DNA of 31,922 bases from Solirubrobacteraceae bacterium (lineage in GTDB: Bacteria > Actinomycetota > Thermoleophilia > Solirubrobacterales > Solirubrobacteraceae): the NCBI GenBank assembly GCA_035547175.1, contig DASZVK010000097.1, positions 1 to 31,922 of the forward strand. Direction: 5' to 3'. Position 1 is the first letter of the stretch; each line of letters opens with the position of its first letter. Below are positions 193 through 29,289 of the stretch, in pieces. A model generated the notes under the pieces. It was given only the letters and a program-made list of their open reading frames with translations, made no database searches and was not told where the DNA came from. A program made the position numbers and the translations under genes.

Positions 193-218
193 CGGTCGAT
201 CCGTCGATAGGAGGAGAC

Positions 219-1328: not shown

Positions 1329-1354
1329 GCGCGCGATCGGACCGGGAGCGCGCC

Positions 1355-2902: not shown

Positions 2903-2928
2903 GCCCCGGCTCGCGATATGGCGCGTCA

Positions 2929-2958
2929 TTGACGACGATCATAATTCCGTTATACGAT
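2929..2958 (+). promoter_or_regulatory. Promoter/operator P2 (TTGACG with TATACG/TACGAT), copy 2 of the shared motif
   Basis: AT-rich intergenic TTGACGACGATCATAATTCCGTTATACGAT; -35 TTGACG with TACGAT at 18-bp spacing; also a CGTCA-T-TGACG dyad at 2924-2934. Confidence 0.7.
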
Positions 2959-2975
2959 CGCCGCGGGGGTAGGGC

Positions 2976-5053: not shown

Positions 5054-5054
5054 G

Positions 5055-8468: not shown

Positions 8469-8481
8469 GACAAGGAGCACC

Positions 8482-9282
8482 ATGTCGATCGAGTCCAGCA
8501 ACGCGACCACGGCCCTCCTGGCGGGCCTCGCCGACGGGTCCGTGCGCGTCGTCGACCTCACGCAGCCCCTGAGCGAGAGCACGCCGGTGCTGATCCTGCC
8601 CGAGCCGTTCGCGAACACGCCGAAGCTCTCGCGCCGCACGCTCAGCCGCTACGACGAGGCCGGGCCGGCGTGGGCCTGGGACGTGCTCGAGATCGGCGAG
8701 CACCACGGCACGCACTTCGACGCGCCGATCCACTGGATCAGCGGCCGCGACGGCAAGGACGTGGCGTCGGTCGACCCGAGCCGCCTCGTCGGCCCCGCGA
8801 TCGTGATCGACAAGTCCGCGCAGGCCGCCGCCGACCCCGGCTACCTGCTGACGGTCGCCGACCTCGAGGCCTTCGAGGACGAGCACGGGCGCATCCCCGA
8901 TGGCGCCTGGGTGCTGTTCCGCTGCGGCTGGGACGCGCGCGCCCACGACGAGGCGGCGTTCCTCAACGCCGGCCCGGACGGGCCGGTCACGCCGGGGCCC
9001 GACGTCGAGGCCTCCCGGTGGCTGGGCACCGAGCGCGGGATCTCGGGCTTCGGCGTCGAGACCGTCGGCATCGACGCCGGCGCCGCCGGCGGCTTCGACC
9101 CCGTCTACCCGCTGCACAACTACCTGCTCGGCAACGACCGCTACGGCCTCACGCAGCTCGCCAACCTCGGTGAGCTGCCGCCGACCGGCGCGGTGATCGT
9201 CGTGGCGCCGCTGAAGCTCGTCGACGGCACCGGCGCCCCGACCCGCGCGCTGGCGCTGGTCCCGGCGGAGAGGCAGGGCTGA
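8482..9282 (+). CDS. Cyclase-family metal-dependent amidohydrolase (isatin hydrolase / kynurenine formamidase fold), 266 aa
   Basis: HxGTHxDxPxH motif (EHHGTHFDAPIHW), VVDLTQPL, GVETVGID, GTGAPTRALA; AAGGAG RBS. Confidence 0.9.
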   Translation: MSIESSNATTALLAGLADGSVRVVDLTQPLSESTPVLILPEPFANTPKLSRRTLSRYDEAGPAWAWDVLEIGEHHGTHFDAPIHWISGRDGKDVASVDPSRLVGPAIVIDKSAQAAADPGYLLTVADLEAFEDEHGRIPDGAWVLFRCGWDARAHDEAAFLNAGPDGPVTPGPDVEASRWLGTERGISGFGVETVGIDAGAAGGFDPVYPLHNYLLGNDRYGLTQLANLGELPPTGAVIVVAPLKLVDGTGAPTRALALVPAERQG

Positions 9283-9285
9283 GCG

Positions 9286-11454: not shown

Positions 11455-13118
11455 TGTCGAGCTGGTCCGAGGGGCGCCGGCCGATCACGCTCGCCATCCT
11501 CGCCCTCGGCGGCGAGGGCGGCGGCGTGCTGGCCGACTGGATCGTCGCGCTCGCCGAGCACGGCGGCTGGACGGCGCAGAACACGTCGGTGGCGGGCGTC
11601 GCCCAGCGCACCGGCGCCACCGTCTACTACGTCGAGATGCTGCCGCCGCCGGGCGAGGGCGACCCGCGGCCCGCCGCCCTCGGCGAGGGCCGCGCCGCGC
11701 CGGTGATGAGCATCTTCCCCACCCCCGGCGAGGTCGACGTCGTCATCGCCTCCGAGCTGATGGAGTCCGGGCGCGCGATCCAGCGCGGCTTCGCGACGCC
11801 CGACCGCACGACGCTGATCGCCTCGACCAGCCGCGTCTACTCGATCGACGAGAAGATGGCGCTCGGCGACGGCCGCGTCGACGGCGCCGAGCTGCTGGCG
11901 GCCGCCGCGCGCTCCTCCAAGCGGCTCGTCGCCGCCGACTTCGCCAGGCTCGCCGAGCAGGCGGGCACGGTCATCAGCGCGTCGCTGTTCGGCGCGCTGG
12001 CCGGCTCGGGCGCGCTGCCCTTCGCGCGCGAGCAGTTCGAGGAGCGCATCCGCGCCTTCGGCAAGGGCGTCGAGGCGTCGCTGGCGGGCTTCGCCGCCGG
12101 CTACGAGGCGGCGACCGCCGAGCCGCCGCGGCCCGCCGCCGAGCCGGCCACCTCCGCGGCGCTGCCGATCACCGCCTGGCCGCCGGGCGACGCGCCCGCG
12201 CCGCTCGACGACGAGGAGGCGGCCAAGGAGGCCGAGGAGCGGCGCCGCAACGAGATCGCCGCCGCCGACCCGGCGTCGCTCGTCGGCCCGGACCTGCGCG
12301 AGCTCGCGCAGCGCGTCGCCGAGCTGCCCGCGGCGTCGCGCTCGATGGCGCTGCACGGCATCGTCCGCACCGCCGTCTACCAGGACGTCGCCTACGCCGA
12401 GCGCTACCTCGAGCGCCTCGGCCGCTTCGCCGCGGTCGAGCCCGACCCCGGCGGGGCCGCCGCGCTGACGACCGAGGCGGCGCGCCACGTCGCGCTGTGG
12501 ATGGCCTACCAGGACACGATCCACGTCGCGCTGCAGAAGACCCGCCAGCAGCGCATGGAGCGCATCCGCGACGAGGCCCGGGCGCGTCCGGGCGATCTCG
12601 TCGAGGTGCGCGAGTTCCTGCATCCGCAGATCGACGAGATCACCGACACGATGCCCTCGCGGCTCGGCGCGCGGCTGCGCGAGGCGCGCTGGTTCGGCGG
12701 CCTCGTCCACCGGCTCACGCACAAGGGGATGATCCTCAACACCAGCTCGGTGTGGGGCTACACGCTGCTGAGCACGCTGGCGCGCATGCGGCCGCTGCGA
12801 CCGCGCTCGCTGCGCTTCGTGCGCGAGCAGGCGGCGATCGAGGCCTGGCTCGAGCAGGCGCTGGCGGCCGCCGAGGCCGACCCCGAGCTCGCCCGCGAGA
12901 TCGTCGAGTGCCAGCGCGTGCTCAAGGGCTACGGGGCGACGCACGCGCACGGCTCGGAGAGCTTCGCGAAGCTGATGGCGGCGGCCCGCTCGCTGGTCGG
13001 CGAGCCCGGCGCCGCCGGTCGCCTGGCGGCGCTGCGCGACGCGGCGCTGGCCGACGAGGACGGCAGGGCCCTGGACGCGGCGCTCGCCGCGCCGGCGCAG
13101 ACGGGCGAGGGCGGCTAG
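11454..13118 (+). CDS. iorB: Indolepyruvate oxidoreductase beta subunit family protein, long form with C-terminal extension, 554 aa
   Basis: ALGGEGGGVLADW, GVAQRTGAT, VDVVIASELME; C-terminal domain with CQRVLKGYG; TGATG overlap with iorA. Confidence 0.88.
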   Translation: MSSWSEGRRPITLAILALGGEGGGVLADWIVALAEHGGWTAQNTSVAGVAQRTGATVYYVEMLPPPGEGDPRPAALGEGRAAPVMSIFPTPGEVDVVIASELMESGRAIQRGFATPDRTTLIASTSRVYSIDEKMALGDGRVDGAELLAAAARSSKRLVAADFARLAEQAGTVISASLFGALAGSGALPFAREQFEERIRAFGKGVEASLAGFAAGYEAATAEPPRPAAEPATSAALPITAWPPGDAPAPLDDEEAAKEAEERRRNEIAAADPASLVGPDLRELAQRVAELPAASRSMALHGIVRTAVYQDVAYAERYLERLGRFAAVEPDPGGAAALTTEAARHVALWMAYQDTIHVALQKTRQQRMERIRDEARARPGDLVEVREFLHPQIDEITDTMPSRLGARLREARWFGGLVHRLTHKGMILNTSSVWGYTLLSTLARMRPLRPRSLRFVREQAAIEAWLEQALAAAEADPELAREIVECQRVLKGYGATHAHGSESFAKLMAAARSLVGEPGAAGRLAALRDAALADEDGRALDAALAAPAQTGEGG

Positions 13119-13948
13119 TGGCCAACGGCAACGGCTTCCCCCCGCGCGCCCTGCTGCTGACCGTGCTGGGCGCCTACGTGCGGCGGCTCGACGAGTGGAT
13201 CTCGATCGCCGGGCTGATCCGGCTGATGGACGAGCTCGGCGTCGACGAGCAGTCGGTGCGCTCGGCCGTCTCGCGCTTCAAGCGCCGCGGGATCGTCGTC
13301 CCCGAGCGCCGCGGCGGGGCGGCCGGCTACCGGATGAGCGAGTCGGGGCACCGGCTGCTGGAGGAGGGCGACGCGCGGATCTACGGTCGGCCGCGGGCGG
13401 CGCTGCTCGACGACGGCTGGGTCCTCGCCGTCTTCTCGGTGCCGGACTCCAAGCGCGCCGACCGCCACGCGCTGCGCTCGCTGCTGGCCTGGCTGGGCTA
13501 CGGGAACCTGTCCTCGGCGGTCTGGATCGCCCCGTGGCACGTCGAGGCCGAGACGCGCGAGGCGCTCGTCCGCCGCGGCCTGGCCGGCTACGTGCAGATG
13601 TTCCGCGCCCACTACGAGGCGTTCGGCACGCCCGCCGACCTCGTCGCGCAGTCGTGGGACCTCGCCGAGCTGCGAGCCCGCTACGTGGCCTTCCAGCGGG
13701 CGGCCGCGCCGATGGCGAGGCGCTGGCGCTCGCAGACGCCCGGCGGCCGCGACGCGTTCGTCGACCACGTGCTCGTGCTGTCGGAGTGGCGGCCGCTGCC
13801 GTTCCTCGACGCGGGCCTGCCGGTCGAGGCGCTGCCGCGCGACTGGCCCGGCCCGCGCGCGTGGGAGACGTTCCACGGGCTGGTCGAGCGGCTCGAGGGC
13901 CCGGCGTTCGACTACGTCCGCGAGGCGATCGGCGATGCGGCCAAATAG
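13118..13948 (+). CDS. paaX: PaaX-family transcriptional regulator, 276 aa
   Basis: LLLTVLGAY, SVRSAVSR wHTH, WVLAVFSVP, LGYGNL...VWIAP, WDLAEL, DAGLPVEALPRDWPG; TAGTG overlap. Confidence 0.9.
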   Translation: MANGNGFPPRALLLTVLGAYVRRLDEWISIAGLIRLMDELGVDEQSVRSAVSRFKRRGIVVPERRGGAAGYRMSESGHRLLEEGDARIYGRPRAALLDDGWVLAVFSVPDSKRADRHALRSLLAWLGYGNLSSAVWIAPWHVEAETREALVRRGLAGYVQMFRAHYEAFGTPADLVAQSWDLAELRARYVAFQRAAAPMARRWRSQTPGGRDAFVDHVLVLSEWRPLPFLDAGLPVEALPRDWPGPRAWETFHGLVERLEGPAFDYVREAIGDAAK

Positions 13949-13959
13949 GTAGTGCTGTG

Positions 13960-13987
13960 TTGACGACCGTCACAGAGACGCTATGTT
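13960..13987 (+). promoter_or_regulatory. Promoter/operator P3 (TTGACG-N16-TATGTT), copy 3 of the shared motif
   Basis: TTGACGACCGTCACAGAGACGCTATGTT, containing a perfect dyad TGACG-AC-CGTCA over the -35. Confidence 0.7.
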
Positions 13988-14015
13988 TGGAGCTGCGATG
14001 GCGATGCGCCCGGGG

Positions 14016-16379
14016 ATGAGGATCGCGGTGTCCGGCGGAGGACCCGCCGGCCTGTACTTCGCGATCCTCATGAAGCGCTCCCAGCCGGCGCACGAGATCA
14101 CCGTCTGGGAGCGCAACGCGCCCGACGACGCGTTCGGCTTCGGCGTCGTCTTCTCCGACGAGACGCTGACCGTCTTCGAGCACGCCGACCCGGAGAGCTA
14201 CGCGGCGATCACCGAGCAGTTCGCGCGCTGGACGGACATCGACATCCACCTGCGCGGCCAGGTGATCACCTCCGGCGGCCACGGCTTCGCCGCGCTCGGC
14301 CGGCGAGCGCTGCTGGGCATCCTCCAGCGTCGCGCGCTCGAGCTCGGGGTGACGATCCACTTCAACGCCGAGACGCCGCCCTACGAGGAGCTCGCCTCGC
14401 ACGACCTCGTGCTCGCCGCCGACGGCCTCAACAGCGCCCTGCGCCACCGCTTCGCCGAGACGTTCCGGCCGTCGCTGGACCCGCGCCGCTGCCGCTACAT
14501 GTGGCTCGGCACGGACCTCGTCTTCGACTCCTTCAAGTTCTTCGTCAAGGAGACCGAGCACGGCATCGTCCAGGTCCACGGCTACCCCTACGACGCGACG
14601 ATGAGCACGTTCATCGTCGAGGCCGGCGAGCGCTTCTGGCAGGGCGCCGGCCTGGACGCGATCGCGACCGAGGGCCTCGGCCCGGGCGAGAGCGACGAGG
14701 CGAGCATCGCCTTCTGCGCCGAGCTGTTCGCCGACGAGCTCGGAGGCCACGCGGTCGTGTCCAACAACTCCAAGTGGCTGCGCTTCACGACGGTCCGCAA
14801 CGAGCGCTGGCGCCACGAGAACGTCGTCCTGATCGGCGACGCCGCGCACACCGCGCACTTCTCGATCGGCTCAGGGACGAAGCTGGCGATGGAGGACGCG
14901 GTCGCGCTGGCGTGGGCCTTCCACGAGAACGGCGACGACCTCGACGCCGCCGTCGCCGCCTACGAGGCCGAGCGGCGCCCGATCGTGGAGAGCACCCAGC
15001 GCGCCGCCCAGGCCAGCCTCGAGTGGTTCGAGGGCATCGACCGCTACGCCGGCCAGGACGCGCTGCAGCTCGCCTTCAACCTGCTCACGCGCAGCCGCCG
15101 GATCACGCACGCGGAGCTGACGCTGCGCGACGCGCCGTTCGTGCGCCGCGTCGAGGAGGAGGCGCTCGACGCGCGGGTGGGCGGGCACGAGGTCGACGGC
15201 CGCATGCCGCCGCCGATGTTCACGCCGCTGCGCCTGCGCGACGTCGAGCTGGCCAACCGCGTCGTCGTCTCGCCGATGGACATGTACTCGGCCGTCGACG
15301 GCGTTCCCGGCGACTTCCACCTCGTCCACCTGGGCAGCCGCGGCCAGGGCGGCGCCGGCCTGGTCATGACCGAGATGGTCTGCGTCTCGGCGCGCGGGCG
15401 GATCACCCCCGGCTGCACCGGCCTCTACGCGCCCGAGCACCTGCCCGCGTGGAGGCGGATCGTCGACTACGTCCACGCCCACGGCGGCGCGCGGTTCGGC
15501 TGCCAGATCGGCCACTCGGGGCGCAAGGGCTCGACGAAGCGGATGTGGGAGGGCATCGACCAGCCGCTCGAGGACGGCAACTGGCCGCTGATCGCGCCCT
15601 CGCCGCTGCCCTACTACGCCCACAGCCAGGTCCCGCGCGAGATGACGCGGGCGGACATGGACGAGGTCCGCGACCAGTTCGTCGCCTCGGCGCGGATGGC
15701 GGCCGAGGCGGGCTTCGACCTGCTCGAGGTCCACGCCGGCCACGGCTACCTGCTGTCGTCGTTCCTCTCGCCGCTGACCAACCGCCGCACGGACGAGTAC
15801 GGCGGCAGCCTCGAGAATCGCGCCCGCTTCGTGCTCGAGGTGTTCGACGCCTGCCGCGCCGTCTGGCCCGAGCATCTGCCGATGTCGATGCGGATCTCGG
15901 CGACCGACTGGGCGCCGGGCGGCTTCGACGGCGACGACGCGGTCGCCTTCGCGCGCATGCTCAAGCAGCACGGCTGCGACCTCGTCGACGTGTCCACGGG
16001 CCAGGTCGTCCACGACCAGCGGCCCGCCTTGGGGCGCAGCTTCCAGACGCCGTTCGCCGACCGGATCCGCAACGAGGTCGGCATCCCGGTGATCGCGGTC
16101 GGCGCGATCTCGTCCTACGACGACGTCAACACGATCATCCTCGCCGGCCGCGCCGACCTGTGCGCGCTCGGCCGCCCGCACCTCTACGACCCGCATTGGA
16201 CGCTGCACGCGGCGGCCGAGCAGGAGTGGCCCCACGTCGCCTGGATCTCGCCCTACCAGGCCGGCCGTCGCCGGCCGGTGACGGGCAAGGACGCGGCCGC
16301 CAAGCCGGCCCCGCGCACGTTCGCCGGGCCCGCCGCCGAGCCGCAGCCGACGCTGTCCCGCCCGCCGATCGAAGCCTAG
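14016..16379 (+). CDS. Bifunctional 2-aminobenzoyl-CoA monooxygenase/reductase or salicylyl-CoA 5-hydroxylase/oxidoreductase (FAD monooxygenase fused to Old Yellow Enzyme domain), about 787 aa
   Basis: [45 protein letters not shown]; OYE half [50 protein letters not shown]; alternative ATGs at 13983/13998/14004. Confidence 0.9.
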
Positions 16380-16389
16380 GAGCGCCCCC

Positions 16390-16809
16390 TTGCCCGACCA
16401 CGAGATCGTCAACCCGCCCTCGCTGCCCAAGCCGTCGGGCTTCAGCCACGGCGTGCGCGCCGGCGACGTCGTCCACCTCGCCGGCCAGACGGCGCTGGAC
16501 GCGGACATGAGGATCGTCGGCGAGACGATCGTCGAGCAGTTCCGCCAGGCGCTGGGCAACGTGCTGACGACGCTGCTCGAGGCCGGCGGCGAGCCGCGGG
16601 ACCTCGTCAGCCTGACGATCTACCTCACCGACGTCGCCGACTACCAGCGCCACGGCCGCGAGATCGGCGCCGTCTACCGCGAGCTGATCGGCGACTGGTA
16701 CCCGGCGATGGCCGGGATCGGCGTCACCGGGCTCTGGCAGCCCGAGGCGCTGATCGAGATCCAGGGCGTCGCCGTGATCCGCCAGCCCAGCCCCACCGAT
16801 CCCGCCTGA
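16390..16809 (+). CDS. RidA/YjgF family protein, 139 aa
   Basis: PSGFSHG, LAGQT, PAM..., LIEIQGVA; TAGGAG RBS before TTG. Confidence 0.88.
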   Translation: MPDHEIVNPPSLPKPSGFSHGVRAGDVVHLAGQTALDADMRIVGETIVEQFRQALGNVLTTLLEAGGEPRDLVSLTIYLTDVADYQRHGREIGAVYRELIGDWYPAMAGIGVTGLWQPEALIEIQGVAVIRQPSPTDPA

Positions 16810-16835
16810 ACCTTCCGACCACTGGAGGAGCCGTC

Positions 16836-17270
16836 ATGTCCGACACCATCAGCGAGGCCGTCCCGGTCGTCACCCGCGCCGGCCACGAGGACCAGCAGAC
16901 CGGTCAGTCCGGCGGCTGCGTGCGCGTCTCCGGCGTCGGCCCGCAGCACACGCCGGCGACGAGGATCTGGTTCGGCCGCGTCAGCAACGAGCCCGGCTAC
17001 CGCTCGCTGCCCCACCACCACGGCGAGGCCGAGACCGGCGGCTACGTGCTCAAGGGCGTCGGGCGCATCTACTACGGCGAGGGCTACCGCACGTGGGTCG
17101 AGATGACCGAGGGCGACTTCGTCTTCGTGCCGCCGCACATGCCCCACGTCGAGTGCAACATGAGCACGACCGACGAGCTGGTGTGGCTGACGTGCCGCAC
17201 GCCCGACAACATCGTCGTCAACCTGCCCGACGTCGAGGACTCCGAGCTGGAGGGGTACCGGCGAGCATGA
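16836..17270 (+). CDS. Cupin domain protein, 144 aa
   Basis: PHHHGEAET and GDFVFVPPHMPHVE cupin motifs; GGAGGAG RBS. Confidence 0.88.
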   Translation: MSDTISEAVPVVTRAGHEDQQTGQSGGCVRVSGVGPQHTPATRIWFGRVSNEPGYRSLPHHHGEAETGGYVLKGVGRIYYGEGYRTWVEMTEGDFVFVPPHMPHVECNMSTTDELVWLTCRTPDNIVVNLPDVEDSELEGYRRA

Positions 17271-18130
17271 CCGCCATGCCGATGCTGGCCGCGCTCGAGC
17301 TGCGGCCGGTGGGCGAGGCGTCCTTCGAGGCCACGCCCCAGCGCGTCCCCTGGCCGAAGGCGTACGGCGGCGACCTGGTCGCCGCCGCGCTCGCCGCCGC
17401 CGACCGGACCGTCGAGCCGGGCCGCGCCGTGCACTCGATGCACAGCTACTTCATGCGCCCGGCCGAGATCCTGCAGCCGGTCCGCTACGACGTCGAGGTC
17501 CTGCGCGACGGACGCTCCTACGGCACGCGCGAGGTGCGGGCGTTCCAGGACGACAGGCTGATCTACATCGCGCTGGTCTCCTACCACGTGCGCGAGCGAG
17601 GGCTCGCGCACCAGGCGCAGATGCCCGACGTCCCGGAGCCGGAGTCGCTGCCCTCCAGCGCGCAGGCGCTCGCGGGCGTCGAGGGCCCGGCGGCCGACTA
17701 CTGGTCGCACGACCGCAGCTTCGACATGCGCCACATCCCCTCGCCGGTGTACCTGAGCGTCGAGGGCGAGCACACGGGCCAGCAGGCGCTGTGGCTGAGG
17801 TCGTTCGGCCCGCTGGCCGACGATCCCGCGCTGCACCGGGTCGCGCTCGCCTACGCCTGCGACTACACGATCCTCGAGCCGGTCCTGCGCGCCCACGGCT
17901 ACGCGTGGATGGACGACGGCCTCGTGACCGCGAGCCTCGACCACGCGATGTGGTTCCACCGCGACGGCCGCGTCGACGACTGGGTGCTCTACGTCCAGAA
18001 CGCGGAGTCCGCCCAGGACGGACGCGGGCTGGCGCGCGGGCACTTCTTCTCGCGCGACGGCGTCCACATCGCGACGGTCCTGCAGGAGGGCGTGATCCGC
18101 ACCCCGGCCGCGGCGACCGCCGGCCGCTAG
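17267..18130 (+). CDS. Acyl-CoA thioesterase II (TesB-like double hotdog), 287 aa
   Basis: YGGDLVAAAL, HSMHSYF, RDGRSY, YACDYTIL, ASLDHAMWFHR; ATGA overlap. Confidence 0.88.
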   Translation: MTAMPMLAALELRPVGEASFEATPQRVPWPKAYGGDLVAAALAAADRTVEPGRAVHSMHSYFMRPAEILQPVRYDVEVLRDGRSYGTREVRAFQDDRLIYIALVSYHVRERGLAHQAQMPDVPEPESLPSSAQALAGVEGPAADYWSHDRSFDMRHIPSPVYLSVEGEHTGQQALWLRSFGPLADDPALHRVALAYACDYTILEPVLRAHGYAWMDDGLVTASLDHAMWFHRDGRVDDWVLYVQNAESAQDGRGLARGHFFSRDGVHIATVLQEGVIRTPAAATAGR

Positions 18131-18139
18131 GAGGCGACG

Positions 18140-19084
18140 GTGGACTTCGGCGTCTTCCTGCCCGTGTCGGGCCGCGCAGCGAGCCGCGGCGGCCTGACCC
18201 ACGCGGCGCGCAAGGCCGAGGAGCTGGGCTTCACGGCGGTCTGGGCCGCCGACCGGATCGTGATCCCGTGGAGGATCGAGACGACCTACAACTACAACTG
18301 GTCGGGGCAGTTCTTCGTGCCGCCCGAGGCGGCGTTCCTCGAGCCGCTGACGGTCCTCGCGTTCCTCGCCGGGGCGACCGAGAGGATCCGCCTCGGCGTC
18401 AGCGTGCTCGTCGGCCCGTACCGCGACCCGGTGTACTGGTCGAAGGTCGTCGCCTCGATCGACCAGCTCTCGGAGGGACGCTTCGTCCTCGGCTTCGGCG
18501 TCGGCTGGATGCCGGAGGAGTTCGCCGCGCTGGGCAGGGCGGAGCACTTTGCGCCGCGCGGCAGGGTCGCCGACGAGCAGCTCGCGATCTTCAGGACGCT
18601 GACGCGCGACGAGCACGCCAGCCACGACGGCGAGTTCTTCGCCTTCGACGACGTCGCCTTCCAGCCCAAGGGCTTCCGCGGGCCGGGCTCGATCCCGGTG
18701 TGGGTCGGCGGCGAGGCCAGGCCCTCGCAGCGCCGCGCCGGCCGCGCCGGCGACGCCTGGTTCCCGTACTTCCCGCGCGTGACGCCCGACGAGCTGGCCC
18801 GCCGCTACGCCTACGTGCTCGAGACGGCCGAGGCCGCCGGGCGCGACCCGCACGACGTCGCGCTGCACTGCTGCCTGTCGGTCGAGGTCACGCCCGAGCC
18901 GGTCGAGCAGGAGCCCGACCTCCTGCGCGGCAGCCCCGAGCAGGTCGTCGAGCGCCTGGCCGCGTTCGCCGAGGTCGGCGTGCAGCACTGCGCGCTGCAG
19001 TTCCTCGTCGGCCGCTACCCCGAGCGCGTCGAGCAGATGGAGCGCTTCGCCGCGCAGGCGCGGGCCGACGGGCTGCTCGGGTAG
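18140..19084 (+). CDS. LLM-class oxidoreductase, probably F420-dependent (Rv2161c/TIGR03619-like), 314 aa
   Basis: AEELGFTAVWAADRIVIP, EPLTVLAFLAGATERIRLG, IDQLSEGRFVLGFGVGWMPEEF, QPKG, GSPEQV. Confidence 0.85.
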   Translation: MDFGVFLPVSGRAASRGGLTHAARKAEELGFTAVWAADRIVIPWRIETTYNYNWSGQFFVPPEAAFLEPLTVLAFLAGATERIRLGVSVLVGPYRDPVYWSKVVASIDQLSEGRFVLGFGVGWMPEEFAALGRAEHFAPRGRVADEQLAIFRTLTRDEHASHDGEFFAFDDVAFQPKGFRGPGSIPVWVGGEARPSQRRAGRAGDAWFPYFPRVTPDELARRYAYVLETAEAAGRDPHDVALHCCLSVEVTPEPVEQEPDLLRGSPEQVVERLAAFAEVGVQHCALQFLVGRYPERVEQMERFAAQARADGLLG

Positions 19085-20916: not shown

Positions 20917-21345
20917 CTACTCGCGCGCGTACACGGTCGTCACCGGCAGCCCCAGGCCGTTGAGCTTGTGCGGCAGGTCGAGGTGCAGCCACCTCGAGAG
21001 GTGCCTGGGCAGCGTCGAGATGATGATCTCGTCGAAGCCGTGGAGGTTGACCGCGTCCTGGACGGCGTCGAGCGCGACGTGGCTGCCGATCATGCCCTCG
21101 ACGTCGCCGCCCGCCGCCTCGCGCAGGTGCGGCAGGGCCAGCGCGAGCACGGCTTCGGCGTCGCTCGCGCCATGGCCCTCGGGATCGTCCGTGACCTCGC
21201 TGAGGCCGTGCGCCCTCCTCGGCACCAGCAGCGTGAAGCGAGCGGGGCCGCGAGCCGCCCGCTCGCGGACCGCCTCGATCAGCGGCGGGGTCGCGGCGGT
21301 CCTGTGTGCGACGACCAGCACGCGGGCGGGACTCGACGGATCCAT
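20917..21345 (-). CDS. Hypothetical protein, universal-stress-protein-like fold, 142 aa
   Basis: VLVVAHRT...FTLLVP...FDEIIISTLP...SRWL..DLP pattern; GAAGGGAG RBS. Confidence 0.65.
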   Translation of the reverse strand: MDPSSPARVLVVAHRTAATPPLIEAVRERAARGPARFTLLVPRRAHGLSEVTDDPEGHGASDAEAVLALALPHLREAAGGDVEGMIGSHVALDAVQDAVNLHGFDEIIISTLPRHLSRWLHLDLPHKLNGLGLPVTTVYARE

Positions 21346-21396
21346 CGTGGGCTCCCTTCGTCGAACGCTCTGCGGCGCATCTTCCCAGGAACGAGC

Positions 21397-21426
21397 TTGC
21401 GAAATCGTTGCTTACGCAACTACAAT
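21397..21426 (+). promoter_or_regulatory. Sigma70-type promoter TTGCGA-N18-TACAAT with GTTGC-TTAC-GCAAC palindrome in the spacer
   Basis: Near-consensus hexamers; perfect 5-bp inverted repeat at 21407-21420; ATG 7 nt after the -10. Confidence 0.75.
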
Positions 21427-21433
21427 AGGTGGA

Positions 21434-22336
21434 ATGCGCGACCTCGCCGAACGTTCCGCGCGCCCCGCCTCCGGGGCCTCCCTGCCCGCTGGGCTGCGGC
21501 TCGGGCCGGTGCGCCTGGCCGTCTCCGACCTGCCCCGGGCCGAGCGCTTCCATCGCGACGTCATCGGGCTGCGGCCGACCGTGCCGGCGGCCGGCGGCGA
21601 CCGCCGCGAGCTCGCGCTGGGCGACGGCGAGACGACCGTCGTCACGCTCGTCGAGGAGCCTGGCGCGCAGCCGGCGCGCCGGGGTCCCGGCCTGTACCAC
21701 GTCGCGCTGCTGTACCCGACGCGCGCCGAGCTCGCCCGCGCGGCCATGCGGATCGCGCTGTCGCGCACGCCGATCCAGGGCGCGTCCGACCACGGCACCC
21801 ACGAGGCGATCTACCTCGCCGACCCCGACGGCAACGGCCTCGAGCTGGCCGCCGACCGGCCGCGAGACCGGTGGCCCGACGTGCGCAGCGTCGACGGGTA
21901 CGCGGGCGGGCCGCAGCCGCTCGACACCGACTCGCTGCTCGCGGAGGTGGCGGGCGAGGCACCGACGGCGAGCGCCGCGCCGGGCCTGCGCGTCGGCCAC
22001 GTCCACCTGCACGTCGGCGACGTCGCCCGCGGCCTGGCCTTCTACCGCGACGCGCTCGGCTTCGACGAGATGGTCGACCTCGGCTCGGCGGCGTTCGTGT
22101 CGGCCGGCGGCTACCACCATCACGTCGGCTTCAACGTCTGGCGAGGTCGCGGCGACGAGCGCGTGTCCGACGGTGTCGTCGGGCTGCGCGACTGGACGAT
22201 CGAGCTGCCGGCCGCGGCCGACGTCGCCGCCGTCCGCGAGCGCCTGGCCGCCGCCGGCGCCGAGGTCTGCGACCACGACTGCGGCTTCTCCGCCACCGAT
22301 CCGTGGGGCATCCCCTTCACGGTGCGCGCCTTCTGA
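21434..22336 (+). CDS. VOC/glyoxalase family protein (CatE-like), 300 aa
   Basis: LGPVRLAVSDL, GLYHVALLYP, ASDHGTHEAIYLADPDGNGLELAADRP, GHVHLHVGD, GGYHHHVGFNVW, DPWG. Confidence 0.88.
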   Translation: MRDLAERSARPASGASLPAGLRLGPVRLAVSDLPRAERFHRDVIGLRPTVPAAGGDRRELALGDGETTVVTLVEEPGAQPARRGPGLYHVALLYPTRAELARAAMRIALSRTPIQGASDHGTHEAIYLADPDGNGLELAADRPRDRWPDVRSVDGYAGGPQPLDTDSLLAEVAGEAPTASAAPGLRVGHVHLHVGDVARGLAFYRDALGFDEMVDLGSAAFVSAGGYHHHVGFNVWRGRGDERVSDGVVGLRDWTIELPAAADVAAVRERLAAAGAEVCDHDCGFSATDPWGIPFTVRAF

Positions 22337-22429
22337 CGCGAACGCGCGTCTGGCCTCGCGCGCGTGAGCGCGCGCTCGCTATCCTGACGCCCGCTCGGCC
22401 TGGATCATCCCGGTCGTTCCAGGCACCCG

Positions 22430-22511
22430 GGCGGGGTTCCCGAGCGGTCAAAGGGGACTGGCTGTAAACCAGTTGGCACTGCCTTCGCAGGTTCGAATCC
22501 TGCCCCCGCCA
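22430..22511 (+). tRNA. tRNA-Tyr(GTA)
   Basis: GGCGGGG/CCCCGCC acceptor stem, anticodon stem ACTGG/CCAGT with loop CTGTAAA, long variable arm, GGTTCGAATCC T-loop. Confidence 0.96.
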
Positions 22512-22522
22512 CTGACACGAGA

Positions 22523-22545
22523 GAGGGCCGCCCCGGGCGGCCCTC
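22523..22545. terminator. Hairpin between tRNA-Tyr and the convergent sigma factor gene
   Basis: GAGGGCCGCC-ccg-GGCGGCCCTC perfect 10-bp stem. Confidence 0.7.
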
Positions 22546-22575
22546 CCTCGTTCCTCCGACGTCCCCTCGCTCGCG

Positions 22576-23718
22576 CTACGACGCGTCCCGCAGGCGCTGC
22601 GCCTCGGGAAGCGACTCCAGCTTCTTGAGCGTGTGGTTCTCGATCTGGCGGATGCGCTCGCGCGTGACGTTGAACGCGCGGCCGACCTCCTCCAGCGTGC
22701 GCGGCCGGCCGCCCGTCAGGCCGTAGCGCATCTCGATCACCTCGCGCTCGCGCTGCGGCAACGCCGCCAGCGCCTTGCGCACGTTCTCGCGACGCAGGTT
22801 CTCCGAGGCCAGCTCGAACGGCGACTCGGCCGTCTGGTCCTCGACGAAGTCGCCCAGCTCGGACTCCTCCTCCTCGCCGATCGGCTTCTCCAGCGAGATC
22901 GGCTGCTGGCTCATGCGCAGGATGTCGCGCACCTCGCGCGCCGTCGTCTCCAGCTCGGCCGCGATCTCCTCCGGCGTCGGCTCGCGGCCCAGCGCCTGCA
23001 CGAGCTGGCGCTCGACGTGGACGACCTTGTTGAGCTTCTCGACCATGTGGACCGGGATCCGGATCGTCCGGCCCTTGTCGGCGATCGCGCGCGTCACCGC
23101 CTGGCGGATCCACCACGTCGCGTAGGTCGAGAACTTGTAGCCGCGCCGGTAGTCGAACTTCTCGACCGCGCGGATCAGGCCGAGCGAGCCCTCCTGGATC
23201 AGGTCCAGGAACGTCAGCCCGCGGCCCAGGTAGCCCTTGGCGATCGAGACGACCAGGCGCAGGTTCGCCTCGACCATGTGGGTCTTGGCGTCCATGTCGC
23301 CACGCTCGATGCGCTTGGCCAGCGCGACCTCCTGCTCGGCCGTCAGCAGCGGGACGCGGCCGATCGAGCGCAGGTAGAGCCGCAGCGAGTCCAGCGACGG
23401 CTCGACCGTGAGGTCGAGCTCGGGCTTGCGCGGCGGATCGGTCGTCTCCTTGTTGTCGCGCGCGTGCGCGACGGCTTCGAGGCGCGCCGCCTCGCTCGTC
23501 GCCGAGCGCCCGTCGGAGCCGACGACGTCTATGCCCTGCTCGACCAGGTGCGCGTGCAGCTCCTGCACCTGCTCCTTGGTCACCTCGATCTCGTCGAGGC
23601 ATGCGGCGATCTGCTCGAAGGTCAGGACGCCCTTCTCCTGCCCCTCGGCGATCAGATGACGAAGCTCCTCCATCTCGAGGATGGAAACCTCGTCCGCCAA
23701 CAGCACCGTATCGGTCAA
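22576..23718 (-). CDS. RNA polymerase sigma-70 factor, RpoD/SigA-like with region 1.1, about 380 aa
   Basis: [77 protein letters not shown]; AGAAGGGT RBS before TTG 23718 (alternative ATG 23673). Confidence 0.93.
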
Positions 23719-23877
23719 CGACACACCCTTCTGGACTTCGGGAACCCTCTCCAACCACTCGCCGGACGGCTGCGCCACCGGCCTCGGAATGCCCGGCCTC
23801 CTCAAACCCGGCCCCGAGTTGGTGGCAAGTGATACCAGACGCCCGAGCGGGACGCGGGCGCCCGTATGCTGGCCTCC

Positions 23878-24891
23878 ATGCACGTTGCGACGATCGCGCC
23901 GGACGTCCAGAGCCAGCGCCCGACGGTCCACGTGTCGCTCTCGCGCGTGGGCGTCACCGGCGTCGAGAAGGTCATCCGCGTCCGCGACCAGCTCTTCTGG
24001 GCGCGGCTGGAGTGCTTCGTCGACCTCGGCCCGAGCCAGAAGGGCGCGCACATGTCGCGCTTCGAGGAGGTCGTCAATGAGGCGATCGGCGAGGTCGTGA
24101 TCCGCGGCAGCGCGCTGCGCGCCGAGGACCTCGCCCAGCGGATCGCCGAGCTGGTGCGCGAGCGCCAGGGCGCGCTGCGCGCCGAGGTGACGATCACCGC
24201 CCGCTATCCCGAGCACAAGCCCGCCCCCGTCTCGGGCATCGAGACCCAGGAGCTGTACACGCTGCACGGCGCCGCGGTCGCCAGCGAGGCCGGCACGCGG
24301 CGCCTCGTCGGCGTCTCCGCGCAGGGCATGACCGCCTGCCCGTGCGCGCAGCAGCTCGTCGCCGGCGCCTCGCGCGAGCGCCTGCTCGCCGACGGCTTCA
24401 CCGCCGACCAGGTGGAGCGGATCCTCGACCACGTCCCCGTCGCGACCCACAACCAGCGCGGGCTCGGCACGCTGCACATCGGCTCGCCTGAGGGCGTCGA
24501 CGCCGACATCGAGGCGGAGGACCTGCTGCGGATCGTCGAGTCCTCGATGTCGAGCGAGATCTACGAGCTGATGAAGCGCTCCGACGAGGGCGCCGTCGTC
24601 GAGAAGGCCCACCGGCGCCCGCGCTTCGTCGAGGACTGCGTGCGCGAGATGGTCAGGGGCGTCGTCGAGCGCTACGGGCGCCTGGGGCCGGGCACGTTCG
24701 TCTCCGCCCGCCAGGAGAACCTCGAGACGATCCACCAGCACAACGTCGTCGCCGAGCGCCAGGGGCTGCTCGGCGAGCTGCGCGCGGAGGTCGCCGGCGA
24801 CGAGCCCGCGCCGCTCGGCGAGGGCGAGCCGTCGCGCCGTCAGGTGTCGATGCGCGAGTGGCTCGAGATGGGGTCCGCGCCCGCCCGCTGA
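23878..24891 (+). CDS. mptA: GTP cyclohydrolase MptA/FolE2 family, 337 aa
   Basis: [50 protein letters not shown]; TATGCT 7 nt before ATG 23878. Confidence 0.88.
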
Positions 24892-25439
24892 GCCTCGCGG
24901 CGCGCCTCGGCTTCGCGCAGCAGCCGGCGCATGCCGAAGAAGTAGTCGATCCCGCTGATCACGGTCGCGGCCACGGCGACGTACAGCAGCGCGTCGACGG
25001 CCGCAGGCGTCGGGTCGTAGGCGATCGCGAAGAAGATCGCCGCGACCTGCACGATCGTCTTGGCCTTGCCCCACCAGTTCGCCGGGATCACCACGCCCTG
25101 ACCGGTCGCCGCCATCCGCGCGACCGTCACCGCGAACTCGCGCGCGATGATCACCATCGCGATCCAGGCGGGCATGCGGTTCAGCGACACCAGCACGACG
25201 AGCGCGGCGACGATCAGCAGCTTGTCGGCGACGGGGTCCATCAGCTTGCCGAACGTCGTGATCGCCTGCTGGCGACGCGCCAGCCAGCCGTCGATCGCGT
25301 CGGTGATCGACGCCGCGGCGAAGACGATCGCCGCCAGCAGGTCGCCCTCGTGCGTCGCGTCGAGCAGCGCGACGACGAGCACCGGGACCAGCAGGATCCG
25401 CAGCAGCGTCAGCAGGTTGGGAACGTTCAGCGTGAACAC
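24840..25439 (-). CDS. pgsA: CDP-diacylglycerol--glycerol-3-phosphate 3-phosphatidyltransferase, about 199 aa
   Basis: [14 protein letters not shown]-alcohol motif [11 protein letters not shown]...[19 protein letters not shown]. Confidence 0.92.
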
Positions 25440-25501
25440 CGGTGCCCGAAGGTACCCGGCCTCGCCGCGCGCGTTACGTGCCCTTGCGGCGAGACCCTTT
25501 T

Positions 25502-25519
25502 GTTTGATAGTCATCGAAC
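25502..25519. promoter_or_regulatory. Imperfect palindrome GTTTGAT-AGTC-ATCGAAC, candidate ArsR-type operator
   Basis: 6/7 inverted match in the only AT-rich patch between divergent pgsA and the thiolase operon. Confidence 0.5.
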
Positions 25520-25588
25520 TGAATCGGGCCGTCCGGCGCGCCGGGGCGCGCGACCGGCTCGGTCGAGGCGAGCGAAGCCGGAGGGACC

Positions 25589-26737
25589 ATGCCGAGGATC
25601 GAGGAAGTCGCCGTCGCCGGCGTCGGCACGGTCGCGTCGCAACGCAAGCCGGGCCCCGGCGTGTCGACCCCGGGGCTGCTGGCCCGGGCCCTGCGGACGG
25701 CGCTCGAGGACGCGGGCATCCCCGCCTCGGAGGTCGACGGCCTCGGCGTCGGATCCTTCAGCCTCGCGCCCGACCGCACGATCGACCTCGCGTGGCACCT
25801 CGGCCTGCGCCTGCGCTGGATGATGGAGGACGTCACGACGATGAACCTCGTGCACCACGCGGTGCACGCGATCCGCTCGGGCGACGCCACGACGATCGCG
25901 ATCCTCGGCGGCGACCACCTCATGGGCGCCGGCTACGGGGCGATGGTCGACGACTACAACCGCGTCACCCGGGAGCACCTCGCGCCGCTCCCGACCGGCG
26001 GGCCCAACCCGCTGTTCGCGCTCGTCACGCAGGAGCACATGGACCGCCACGGCCTCTCGCGCGAGGACTACGGACGGGTCGTGATCAGCCAGCGCGCGTT
26101 CGCGGGCACCAACCCCTACGCCGCCTACCGCGAGCCGCTGGCGATCGAGGAGTACCTCGCGGCGCCCGTCGTCTCCGACCCGCTGACGATCTTCGACTGC
26201 CCGCCGATCGTCGCCGGCGCCGAGGCGATCGTGCTGACCGCCGAAGACCGCGGCCCGCCCGGCCGGCGCCGCGTCGCGATCCGCGCGATCGCCTCCAGCT
26301 TCAACCACGACCAGCAGGCCGGCGACGGGCTGCGGACCGGCCTCTCCCAGATCGCCGACGGGCTCTGGCGCGACGGCGGCGTCGGTCCCGAGGACGTCGA
26401 CGTGGCCGAGCTCTACGACGACTACCCCGTGATCGTGCTCGCCCAGCTCGAGGACCTCGGGCTGATCCGCGACGGCGACGCCTCGGCGATCCTGCGGGGA
26501 CCGGGCCGGTCGCGCCCCGGCGTCAACACCGGCGGCGGGATGCTGGCGGCCGGCCAGGCCGGCGCCGCGGGAGGCATCCAGGGCTTCGTCGAGGCCGTGC
26601 GCCAACTCCGCCACGAGCGTGGCGACGGGCAGATCGCCGGCGCCCGCATCGCCGTCGTGGCGGGCTACGCGATGGTGCTCTACCGCTACGGCGCCTGCTC
26701 GGTCGGCGCCGTGCTCGAGGGGCTGGAGGCGCGCTGA
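25589..26737 (+). CDS. Thiolase-family (SCP2/Ltp-type) protein with non-canonical active site, 382 aa
   Basis: [57 protein letters not shown]; GGAGGG RBS. Confidence 0.85.
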
Positions 26738-27072
26738 TGGCGCTCGACCTGCCGACCTGCGCCTCGTGCGGGCTCGCCGTCTTCCCGCCGCACCTGCTGT
26801 GCTCGCGCTGCGGCTCGGCCGAGTGGGCCTCGACGACCGTCGAGGCCGGCACGCTCGAGCGCGTCACGTTCGTGCGTCGCAGCCTGCAGCGAACCGCCTC
26901 CATCGGGACGCCGGCGATCGGCCTGGTCCGCACCGACCCGGGGCCGCGGATCGTCGTCCGCGTGCGCGGCGACGCGCAGCCCGGACAGGACGTCCGCCTC
27001 GACCTCGTCGACGGAGCGGTCGTCGCCTCGCCCCTCGAAGCGCCACCACCGACCAAGGAGGCCCCCAGTTGA
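26737..27072 (+). CDS. DUF35-type Zn-ribbon/OB-fold protein, 111 aa
   Basis: CASCG..FPP...CSRCGS double CxxC followed by an OB-like part; TGATG overlap with the thiolase. Confidence 0.85.
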
Positions 27073-28331
27073 GCACGACCACGGCGACGTCACCCATCGG
27101 CTCGCTCCCCGCGGTCGGCAGCGTCCCACGGCGCATGCACGCGATGGTCGTGCGCCAGGAGCGCTACGGCGAGCCGATCGACGCCTTCCAGGCAGAGGAG
27201 GTCGACGTCCCCGGGCTCGCTCCCGGGCAGGCGCTCGTGGGCGTGATGGCCGCCGGGATCAACTACAACAACGTCTGGGCCGCGCGCGGGACGCCGGTCG
27301 ACGTGATCGCCGTCCGCCAGCGCGCCGGCGAGCCCCACGACTTCCACATCGGCGGCTCGGACGCCTCCGGCGTCGTCTACGCCGTCGCGCCCGACGTGAC
27401 GAGCGTGGCGGTCGGCGACGAGGTCGTCCTCCACCACGGCTGGTGGGACGCCGACGACCCGTGGATCGCCGCCGGCCGCGACCCGATGACCGCGCCGTCC
27501 TCGCGCATCTGGGGCTACGAGACCAACTTCGGCGCCTTCGGCCAGTTCGCCGTCGTCCAGGCGCACCAGTGCATGCCGAAGGCGGCTCACCTCACCTGGG
27601 AGGAGGCGGCGGCGCCGAGCCTCGTCGGCACGACCGCCTACCGCATGCTCTTCGGCTGGCCGCCCAACACGGTGCGCGAGGGCGACGTCGTGCTCGTCTG
27701 GGGCGGCGCCGGCGGGCTCGGGACGCAGGCGATCCAGCTCGTCCGCCACGCGGGCGGGATCCCGGTCGCCGTGGCGTCCTCGGCGGAGTCCGGCGAGTAC
27801 TGCGTCTCGCTCGGCGCGGCCGGCTGGATCGACCGCACGCAGTTCAGCCACTGGGGCATGCCGCCGCACTGGGACGACGTCGCCGGCCAGAGGGAGTGGA
27901 CGGCGCAGGCGCGCGCGTTCGGCAAGGCGATCTGGGACGCCGTCGGCGAGCGCCGCAACCCGGCGATCGTCTTCGAGCATCCGGGCGAGGCCACGATCCC
28001 GACGTCGATCTTCGTCGCCGACAACGAGGGCATGGTCGTCATCTGCGCCGGGACGACCGGCTACTCGGCGGTCGTCGACCTGCGCTACCACTGGACGCGC
28101 CAGAAGCGCCTGCAGGGCTCGCACGGCACCAACGACGAGCAGGCCTACGCCTACAACGAGCTCGTGCGCGCCGGGGCGATCGACCCGGCGATGGCGCGCG
28201 TGCTGCCGTTCGAGGACATCCCGCGCGCCCACCAGGAGATGGCCGACGGCCGCGCCGGCGTCGGCAACACGTCGATCCTCGTCGGGGCCCCGGAGCCGGG
28301 CCTGGGCCGGTCCGCGCCGCGGCCGGCCTAG
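27069..28331 (+). CDS. ccr: Crotonyl-CoA carboxylase/reductase (enoyl-thioester carboxylating reductase), 420 aa
   Basis: [58 protein letters not shown]; AAGGAGG RBS before TTG. Confidence 0.9.
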
Positions 28332-28654
28332 GCGACGGGGTGCGGGACGCGCAGGCCCATGACGCGCTCGAGCAGGCCCGGCATCTCGTCCTCGATCTCG
28401 CGCAGGCGGGCGCGATAGTAGAAGTAGCGGCCCTCGCGACGGGTCTCGATCAATCCTGCCGCGTTGAGCATCTTGGTGTGGTAGGAGATCGTCGACTTGG
28501 CGATCGGGAAGTGGTCGTCGAAGACGCGGCAGCCGAGCTCGCCCGCCTCGACGATCATCTCGAACATCTCCATCCGCGTGGCGTCGCTGAGGGCGCTGAA
28601 CACCATCGACAGGCGCTGCCGCCGCGCCTCGTCGATCGGCCTCCTCGCCGGCAT
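28328..28654 (-). CDS. ArsR/SmtB-family transcriptional regulator, 108 aa
   Basis: [32 protein letters not shown] wHTH, MPGLL C-terminus; stops overlap with ccr on CTAG. Confidence 0.88.
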
Positions 28655-28707
28655 GGCGCAAGTCTAGTCGCGGCGCGGCGCGAGCCGTGGGCGTTAGCCT
28701 CCCCGGC

Positions 28708-29289
28708 ATGCCGCTGATCCCCATGGTCGTCGAGCGCACCGCGCGCGGCGAGCGCGAGTACGACATCTACTCCCGGCTGCTCAACGAGCGGATCATCTTC
28801 CTGGGCACGGCCGTCGACGACCAGGTGGCCAACCTGATCGTGGCGCAGCTGCTGCATCTCGAGTCGGCCGACCCCGACAAGGACATCAGCCTCTACATCA
28901 ACTCGCCGGGCGGGTCGATCTACGCCGGCCTGGCGATCTACGACACGATGCGCTTCATCAAGCCCGACGTGCAGACGATCTGCTGCGGGATCGCGATGAG
29001 CATGGGCTCGCTGCTGCTGACCGGCGGCGCCAAGGGCAAGCGCTTCTCGCTGCCCAACTCGCGGATCCTGATCCACCAGCCGTCGGCCGGGTTCGAGGGC
29101 CAGTCGACCGACATCGAGATCCACGCCCGCGAGATCCTCAAGACGCGCGAGCGCATCGACGAGATCTACGCCGAGGCGACCGGCCAGTCGATCGAGCAGG
29201 TGCACTCCGACATGGAGCGCGACCGCTTCTTCACGCCCGAGCAGGCCGTCGAGTACGGCTTGATCGACAAGGTCATCAGCTCGCACTAG
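28708..29289 (+). CDS. clpP: ATP-dependent Clp protease proteolytic subunit, 193 aa
   Basis: [30 protein letters not shown], catalytic AMSMG / IHQP / ERD. Confidence 0.96.

Follow-up and report, generated by a model that had tools for sequence, protein, structure and literature searches.

In this study, we analysed a stretch of 31,922 nucleotides (nt) from a Solirubrobacteraceae bacterium (contig DASZVK010000097.1, hereafter the window) and in it a block of four genes for a thiolase-fold protein, a small DUF35 protein, a crotonyl-CoA carboxylase/reductase (Ccr) and an ArsR-type regulator. With a probability of roughly 60%, this block is a real, lineage-specific operon in which two independently conserved gene pairs were joined in a variable chromosomal slot. 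Because the combination was found in no other genome, the operon looks like a recent one-off and not like a widespread new pathway. The genes are located as follows (window positions; protein lengths in amino acids, aa):

25589-26737, plus strand: thiolase-fold gene, 382 aa, with GGAGGG before the ATG
26737-27072, plus strand: DUF35-like gene, 111 aa, whose ATG overlaps the preceding TGA by one base ('TGATG')
27069-28331, plus strand: ccr, 420 aa, with a TTG start within 'TTGA' and AAGGAGG 7 nt upstream
28328-28654, minus strand: ArsR gene, 108 aa, convergent with ccr, the stop codons overlapping by 4 nt

According to the preferred reading, the thiolase-fold protein and its DUF35 partner would split or form a beta-hydroxyacyl-CoA by an aldol reaction like that of the steroid side-chain aldolases Sal and Ltp2, with Tyr276 as predicted base and Asp278 as predicted acid. 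The Ccr, which belongs to a type with Gly directly after the catalytic His (His-Gly type) and travels with an ArsR regulator, would carboxylate an enoyl-CoA not limited to crotonyl-CoA. The two pairs would be joined by a ccr-type motif located before the thiolase-like gene, which would put three genes under one ArsR-controlled promoter.

The first-pass annotation of this DNA had postulated an undescribed module joining a C-C bond step to reductive carboxylation, and had proposed a neighbourhood search for ccr beside thiolase/DUF35 genes. This search was carried out, and the linkage is not conserved; the gene order is absent from about 97 homologous loci, and a recurrent module of this kind was not borne out. 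On the Ccr side, 80 species-representative loci with 6-kb flanks and 6 metagenomic loci of the nearest homologues were used. The nearest homologues were taken from 8000 scored candidates, while His-Gly homologues run to thousands. They are 59-82% identical to the window enzyme and originate from Gaiellaceae, Solirubrobacterales, Chloroflexota, Acidimicrobiia, Streptomyces and others. None of these about 86 homologous loci has a DUF35 gene, and L096 alone has a thiolase-like gene, a distant one with 35% identity. Relatives of the same genus, family or order possess a Ccr that is merely 42-52% identical and has no thiolase-like gene close by.

On the other side, the thiolase-like homologues (52-68% identical) form a family, and in all 11 other loci examined the gene next after the thiolase-like one is a small DUF35 gene; none of these loci contains a Ccr gene. 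What accompanies the pair there is a CoA ligase or CoA transferase, an acyl-CoA dehydrogenase, a luciferase-like oxidoreductase and ABC transporters. Of the 400 genomes of the class that were compared, 6 (all of one other family) carry the thiolase-like gene and 2 this Ccr type, and both genes occurred together in none besides the genome studied here. A metagenome scan with the thiolase-like protein yielded one distant locus, the search patterns being too specific. All-against-all clustering of neighbouring frames from 85 Ccr loci revealed no widely shared neighbour of the His-Gly Ccr and missed short ArsR genes; direct searches with proteins of the window and of contig C218 were more sensitive. 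Thereby, five independent loci of the closest Ccr homologues (L030, L031, L027, L028 and L128) were found to contain an adjoining ArsR gene with 63-70% identity; in all of them it is divergent and upstream of ccr. The cross-genome partner of the His-Gly Ccr is thus the ArsR gene and not the thiolase.

Two genomes of another family of the class show a further arrangement of the thiolase-like/DUF35 pair (L134, 3411-12766, and L135). There, the pair comes after a three-subunit molybdenum hydroxylase, and the genes behind it encode an acyl-CoA dehydrogenase, a Ccr-superfamily reductase resembling PIG3/YhdH, an enoyl-CoA hydratase and a thiamine-diphosphate enzyme. This operon may serve the aldolytic side-chain cleavage of a heteroaromatic or aromatic acyl-CoA.

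Owing to its G+C content of 73%, the window has many long spurious reading frames; genes were called from third-position G+C. The ribosome-binding site of ccr is located inside the DUF35 gene, and the overlaps across the three genes amount to 1 nt and 4 nt. Because the conserved N-terminus of the Ccr aligns with PDB 9KVA (residues 8-22, from residue 3 of 9KVA on), the TTG start of ccr is fixed. No promoter-like or terminator-like consensus sites were found inside the four-gene block; the overlaps and the lack of terminator-like sites suggest co-transcription of the three genes. Each junction is spanned by contigs from other studies' soil and rhizosphere runs, which show 0-2 differences from the window:

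Junction 26737: bridged by an X5 contig (26679-26891)
Junction 27069: bridged by an X5 contig (26881-27188) and an X6 contig (26931-27168)
Promoter region: bridged by an X6 contig (25372-25542) and an X7 contig (25429-25590)
Junction 28330: bridged by an X7 contig (28238-28521)

These contigs come from independent runs and share the junctions; an assembly chimera is therefore ruled out, and the arrangement is real and present in more than one sample. Three coupled genes with a convergent ArsR gene, as described by the first-pass annotation, were thus confirmed by frame analysis, family matches and independent contigs.

The ArsR protein reaches 61 bits with NF033788 (ArsR/SmtB; cut-off 55) and has one Cys in the usual alpha-3 region. 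Between the ArsR gene and ccr of L030, L031, L028 and L027, the motif GTTTGATA-N4-TCGAAC occurs with at most one mismatch on the ccr strand, 36-42 nt before ccr. In the window, it has a single match at up to two mismatches (0.01 expected):

25502-25519, plus strand: operator-like motif GTTTGATAGTCATCGAAC, an imperfect palindrome GTTCGAT-N4-ATCGAAC, 70 nt upstream of the ATG of the thiolase-like gene

This site is also the sole exact match of the motif in the 2.7-Mb genome, and the motif was found nowhere else in 1.22 Mb of fetched loci. Two near-palindromic look-alikes with two mismatches each are probably due to chance, namely GTTCGATGGATCTCGAAC at C218:3989, a near-palindrome over the start codon of an enoyl-CoA hydratase gene, and a site at C271:3603 near cytochrome c maturation genes. 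The thiolase/DUF35 pair therefore sits between a Ccr-type control region and ccr, and the ArsR gene lies on the far side instead. Because the ccr-associated motif here precedes the thiolase-like gene, all three genes are predicted to be under one promoter, which is probably controlled by ArsR, and the ArsR protein would bind at 25502-25519. To judge from the sequence, the placement of this motif is the best evidence for a putative co-regulation of the three genes in this organism.

The chromosomal position of the block was compared with that in relatives. It is flanked on the left by genes for the GTP cyclohydrolase FolE2 and a divergent CDP-alcohol phosphatidyltransferase, and on the right by genes for ClpP, a fumarylacetoacetate-hydrolase-family protein, an isoaspartyl methyltransferase and a Nudix protein. 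The borders of the slot are formed by two genes:

24840-25514, minus strand: CDP-alcohol phosphatidyltransferase gene (Pfam CDP-OH_P_transf), left border, true start probably the GTG at 25439
28708-29289, plus strand: clpP (CLP_protease, 285 bits), right border

Orthologues of the transferase in the same genus are 74-84% identical, with alignments that start at residues 8-26 of the long reading, and ClpP orthologues are 85-91% identical in three relatives from the genus and one from the family. Within the genus the order FolE2, transferase, variable stretch, ClpP, hydrolase, methyltransferase and Nudix is kept with 55-91% identity. The slot (25515-28707 in the window, compared with L123-L127) has a size of 1.1-4.6 kb in the relatives, where its cargo comprises an aldo/keto reductase, EamA, a histidine kinase and an ABC-2 transporter. 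Because relatives hold other cargo between the conserved borders, the four-gene block is considered lineage-specific cargo of a variable slot. Misbinning of the contig is ruled out by flanking genes that are 74-91% identical to those of genomes of the same genus and stand in the same order. A scan of the slot genes in three relatives of the genus showed an aldo/keto reductase gene immediately before clpP in each.

Although it has the fold, the first protein of the operon is not a thiolase in its active site. Thiolase_C_1 gives 88.6 bits, and all NCBIfam thiolase models remain far below their cut-offs. The position of the nucleophilic Cys is occupied by T84, and 111 of 118 homologues have Gly there; 'GQAG' stands at the site of the thiolase 'GHP', so that the thiolase His is replaced as well. 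Neither the nucleophilic Cys nor the His/Cys acid-base residues of thiolases are therefore found, and thiolysis is predicted to be impossible for this Cys-less protein. Instead, Y276-D277-D278 and Q323 are invariant in 118 of 118 homologues; the residue after D278 is Tyr in 115 and Phe in 3 and is followed by an invariant Pro. The resulting Y-D-D-[Y/F]-P motif aligns with Y302-D-C304-Y of the bile-acid aldolase CtSal (PDB 9MYR), with Y276 corresponding to Tyr302. In CtSal, Tyr302 is the base and Cys304 the acid, and Gln352 takes the place of the second Tyr of Ltp2, which has the motif Y-D-H-F and in which the His together with the second Tyr has the acid role (PMC12329534). The catalytic Tyr of the Y-D-x-[Y/F] motif of these aldolases is thus present (Y276), while the third motif position holds D278, which is invariant in the family, and not one of their acids. 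The second Tyr of Ltp2 is also not present in the family, which has Gln323 there like Sal.

The 111-aa DUF35 protein contains a C-x2-C-x10-C-x2-C zinc ribbon, read in the translation, and an OB fold, and is a stand-alone protein. It matches zf-ChsH2 with 27.7 bits (above the cut-off) and OB_ChsH2_C with 22.6 bits (below it), and its top solved match is the DUF35 domain of ChsH2 (6OK1_B, E = 5e-4). A zinc-ribbon DUF35 partner, as in the Sal and Ltp2 systems, is indicated by the ribbon motif, the zf-ChsH2 match and the adjacency of the two genes in all loci examined. Of the 'thiolase/DUF35 pair' of the first-pass annotation, the fold and the DUF35 partner hold, but the name 'thiolase' needs correcting, as the nucleophilic Cys is gone and an aldolase-like motif is found instead. 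By analogy, the thiolase-fold protein is probably an aldolase that splits or forms beta-hydroxyacyl-CoA.

In comparison with CtSal/CtShy(DUF35) (PDB 9MYR, PMC12329534) and TcLtp2/ChsH2(DUF35) (PDB 6OK1), the pair has in common the Cys-less thiolase fold, the start of the motif with Tyr-Asp and the zinc-ribbon DUF35 protein, and with Sal also the Gln at the site of Gln352. It differs in the third motif residue, which is an essential Cys in Sal, His in Ltp2 and Asp here (Y-D-D-Y), in the DUF35 protein, which is separate and not the tail of a MaoC hydratase, and in the absence of steroid genes nearby; the overall similarity is low, at about 100 bits. Because it departs from both at the third motif residue, the predicted aldolase lies outside the Sal and Ltp2 types. 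Asp would take the place of the acid, and the family appears to be a new variant.

The second protein of interest, the Ccr, scores 519.8 bits with TIGR01751 (crotonyl-CoA carboxylase/reductase; cut-off 378.55). Its top solved match is the M. metallidurans enzyme 9KVA with 633 bits; scores against AntE, CinF and the M. extorquens Ccr are 493, about 260 and 373.5 bits, respectively. Residues were read from alignments to CinF, AntE, 4GI2 and 9KVA, with the numbering of the K. setae enzyme mapped indirectly. In K. setae Ccr, the CO2 pocket consists of Asn81, Phe170, Glu171 and His365 (PMC6628652). All four positions are kept in the window enzyme as N67 (NYNN), Y150, E151 (WGYE) and H352 (GSH), and the carboxylation residues named in the first-pass annotation (the NYN Asn, the aromatic residue and Glu of WGYE and the GSH His) are thus present. 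In the K. setae enzyme, a change of Phe to Tyr retains carboxylation and E171A still carboxylates 97% (PMC6628652). Three residues before the aromatic residue stands I147, which is Ile in ordinary Ccr and Ala in CinF.

Crotonyl-specific Ccr have a Phe that closes the acyl pocket. This bulky gate residue directly follows the catalytic His in 4GI2 from M. extorquens, in the Ccr of the relatives and in all loci with an adjacent mutase. The window enzyme does not have it and carries G353 directly after H352; this position is likewise Gly in CinF and 9KVA, Val in AntE and Ala in the AntE variant 4Y1B. Because the gate Phe is replaced by Gly, the pocket is predicted not to be restricted to crotonyl-CoA, and the enzyme probably carboxylates an enoyl-CoA beyond crotonyl-CoA owing to its opened pocket. 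An alignment of 211 Ccr sequences was used for a tree rooted on the Ccr of the relatives. The His-Gly group comprises 162 of the 211 sequences and forms one clade (162 of 162 tips, support 0.84). According to this tree, the His-Gly Ccr are a separate subclade of single origin, with a pocket predicted to be open. The residue equivalent to Glu171 is invariant in the 49 His-Phe enzymes, while the His-Gly enzymes have Glu in 72 cases, Asp in 70, Asn in 13, Gln in 6 and Gly in 1. Where a mutase gene neighbours ccr, as in eight loci, the enzyme is always of the Phe type. No published biochemistry or kinetics for the His-Gly subclade were found in a literature search.

The closest solved relative, 9KVA from Mesorhizobium metallidurans (PMC12632816), shares the His-Gly type (QGSHG) and the Ile and Leu pocket residues with the window enzyme, and differs by an Asn in place of Glu151. 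It was reported as a dimer structure only, without kinetics or substrate range (PMC12632816). The 2-octenoyl-CoA carboxylase/reductase CinF (PDB 4A0S) shares the Gly after the catalytic His and differs by Ala at the site of Ile147; AntE (PDB 4Y0K) has Val after the His and Ala in place of Leu185. Both serve polyketide clusters, of which none was found in this genome. Ordinary Ccr (M. extorquens 4GI2, K. setae 6OWE) share the family model and the four CO2-pocket residues, but have the gate Phe where Gly is found here, and serve the ethylmalonyl-CoA pathway, for which no ecm gene was found in this genome.

Other His-Gly loci give hints on the metabolic surroundings of this subclade. Among about 50 His-Gly loci compared, an ADP-forming acyl-CoA synthetase was present in 13 and an enoyl-CoA hydratase in 14, and neither was found in any locus beside a Phe-type Ccr. 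The closest named models of the synthetase are acetate-, 3-hydroxypropionate- and 4-hydroxybutyrate-CoA ligases, all below their cut-offs. These loci hold the same three activities, as separate genes, as propionyl-CoA synthase (PDB 6EQO) and the archaeal trio of 3-hydroxypropionate-CoA ligase, dehydratase and acryloyl-CoA reductase. Unlike propionyl-CoA synthase, the window lacks the synthetase and hydratase partners, and its reductase is of the carboxylating type. In three metagenomic loci (L027, L028 and L128) the recurring ArsR gene, the His-Gly Ccr, the ADP-forming acyl-CoA synthetase, the enoyl-CoA hydratase and an ABC transporter stand together, a set that resembles propionyl-CoA synthase divided into single genes, with a carboxylating reductase. 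In the genome studied here, contig C218 (L130, 732-8528) carries genes for an alcohol-dehydrogenase-type protein, a metallo-beta-lactamase-fold protein, an FAD-linked oxidase, an enoyl-CoA hydratase, an ADP-forming acyl-CoA synthetase and a luciferase-like oxidoreductase, the last being 64% identical to the product of the gene after the thiolase/DUF35 pair in L029.

For the metabolic context of the Ccr, the genome assembly (2.7 Mb, 92.6% complete) was searched for genes of the ethylmalonyl-CoA pathway and of polyketide synthesis. The tallies of relatives include an unpublished genome (G009), on which no claim depends. Only one gene of the genome exceeds the TIGR01751 cut-off, namely that of the window Ccr, and only one acyl-CoA mutase is present, which belongs to the 700-bit, Mcm-like class of the relatives. 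The relatives carry about three mutase genes, and one of the ecm-like class (about 435 bits) is located 3-8 kb from a Phe-type ccr in at least 14 genomes. No ecm-like mutase was found in the genome at 92.6% completeness, and the syntenic site is empty. In G004 and G016 ccr comes after corA. Here, corA begins or ends at a contig break, being divided between the end of C322 and the start of C62, and 17 nt behind it stands the 120-aa gene that the relatives have after ccr (region C322:2-511 and C62:1-716). This 120-aa gene has no family match and always accompanies the ccr of the relatives. The ecm-like mutase of G006 is likewise missing here between the colinear genes C62:2384-2830 and C62:3339-3791. 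At their usual sites, both the His-Phe ccr of the ordinary type and the ecm-like mutase are cleanly deleted; because the colinear flanking genes at both sites remain and mutase and ccr are absent, the loss is not an assembly gap. As to polyketide synthesis, no polyketide ketosynthase was detected in the 2.7-Mb genome, in which one FabF-like hit and one trivial hit were obtained. The statements that neither a mutase nor a polyketide synthase is nearby and that the Ccr stands outside an ethylmalonyl-CoA or polyketide setting agree with these results, and the suggested check for ecm elsewhere in the genome returned the Mcm-like mutase alone.

Because the ordinary ccr and the ecm-like mutase have been lost, the Ccr is not expected to serve the ethylmalonyl-CoA pathway. 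That it is simply the enzyme of this pathway, placed here by chance, had been named as an outcome that would overturn the first-pass annotation. It is the only gene over the TIGR01751 cut-off and is 59-60% identical to Rhodospirillales Ccr encoded beside an ecm-like mutase, but the ccr/ecm-like locus of the relatives is missing from the colinear sites, no mutase lies between C62:2830 and C62:3339, the sole mutase is Mcm-like and the enzyme falls into another clade, which has a Gly gate; this explanation is highly improbable. With the Mcm-like mutase alone, methylmalonyl-CoA formed from acrylyl-CoA could still be usable, while ethylmalonyl-CoA would be without known outlet. Equally, the supply of an unusual extender unit to a polyketide synthase would fit the Gly gate in common with CinF and the higher score against AntE than against the M. 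extorquens Ccr. CinF and AntE both belong to secondary metabolism. As no polyketide synthase is present in the window or in the 2.7 Mb of the assembly, such a role has next to no probability. An enzyme that only reduces enoyl-CoA and fixes no CO2 would agree with the unconserved Glu171 equivalent of the His-Gly subclade, with the Asn of the solved member 9KVA and with the lack of published kinetics. The window enzyme retains N67, Y150, E151 and H352, and the K. setae variants with Phe changed to Tyr and E171A still carboxylate (the latter 97%; PMC6628652), which makes pure reduction very unlikely.

The preferred reading, a one-off junction of two mobile pairs that are conserved separately, has to be weighed against a dedicated three-gene pathway, in which an aldol-type step and reductive carboxylation act on the same unusual acyl-CoA, for example from an aldehyde and acetyl-CoA via 3-hydroxyacyl-CoA and enoyl-CoA to alkylmalonyl-CoA, or in reverse from the catabolic side. 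Such a pathway would account for the overlaps of 1 nt and 4 nt, the ccr ribosome-binding site in the DUF35 gene and the Ccr-associated operator motif before the first gene. It would also suit the L134/L135 pair with its acyl-CoA dehydrogenase, Ccr-superfamily reductase and enoyl-CoA hydratase, and the C218 oxidoreductase (64% identity to L029) beside the kinds of hydratase and ADP-forming synthetase that accompany His-Gly Ccr. However, the gene order recurs in none of the homologous loci, no other genome among the 400 has both genes, the operon contains no hydratase or dehydratase that would link 3-hydroxyacyl-CoA to enoyl-CoA, and the C218 hydratase and synthetase are merely 30-41% identical to the Ccr-adjacent ones elsewhere. 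We therefore consider a dedicated pathway unlikely. Several points nevertheless count against the one-off junction. The contexts were sampled, with about 100 loci in all, and not exhaustively covered; given L134/L135, a reductase partner is not foreign to the thiolase/DUF35 family; and the tight overlaps and the shared promoter could equally reflect selection for the genes to work together. Moreover, the role of the Gly gate comes in part from mutagenesis work, which reportedly supports it, and otherwise from the comparison with CinF and AntE, and no RNA runs containing the stretch were found, only DNA runs. A joint reading would be that, after loss of the ccr-ecm route, the lineage put together a new route under one ArsR-controlled promoter, in which an Asp-using aldolase with its DUF35 partner forms or splits a beta-hydroxyacyl-CoA and an open-pocket Ccr then fixes CO2 on the matching enoyl-CoA, and that the His-Gly enzymes are a separate functional class which carboxylates enoyl-CoAs from imported hydroxy acids; both of these parts together are regarded as quite doubtful. 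If true, the first part would amount to an undescribed CO2-incorporating assimilation of an aldehyde or hydroxy acid.

As a single-lineage event, the arrangement defines no new widespread pathway. Three elements can be carried forward from it, namely the Gly-gate Ccr subclade, the Asp-type family of predicted thiolase-fold aldolases and the candidate ArsR operator. Enoyl-CoA carboxylase/reductases are prized as fast CO2-fixing enzymes. The large His-Gly subclade, with a CinF-like open gate, a relaxed Glu position and contexts usually outside the ethylmalonyl-CoA pathway and polyketide synthesis, might widen the range of natural carboxylation substrates. Next to Sal and Ltp2, the Y-D-D-[Y/F]-P family could represent a third mode of catalysis in aldolases with the thiolase fold. 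The shared motif is a candidate operator and gives a way to test directly for an ArsR-type regulator that acts on acyl-CoA metabolism.

Further parts of the window were annotated as well. A cluster for the catabolism of aromatic compounds occupies positions 165-19084. It encodes luciferase-like oxygenases, a Liv-type transporter, a cyclase, an IorAB-like enzyme and a PaaX-type regulator, and also a 2-aminobenzoyl-CoA monooxygenase/reductase-like gene, RidA, a cupin and a TesB-type thioesterase. A link of the operon to this isatin/2-aminobenzoyl-CoA cluster, whose product is a cyclic enoyl-CoA, was considered and rejected, since none of its genes recur beside the His-Gly Ccr or the thiolase pair; it is further weakened by the intervening genes, which are syntenic housekeeping genes. 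Positions 20917-23758 contain three frames with coding-type composition and no Pfam match:

about 20920-21345, minus strand: coding-type frame
21429-22336, plus strand: coding-type frame
22451-23758, minus strand: coding-type frame

These three frames have counterparts with 52-72% identity in relatives.

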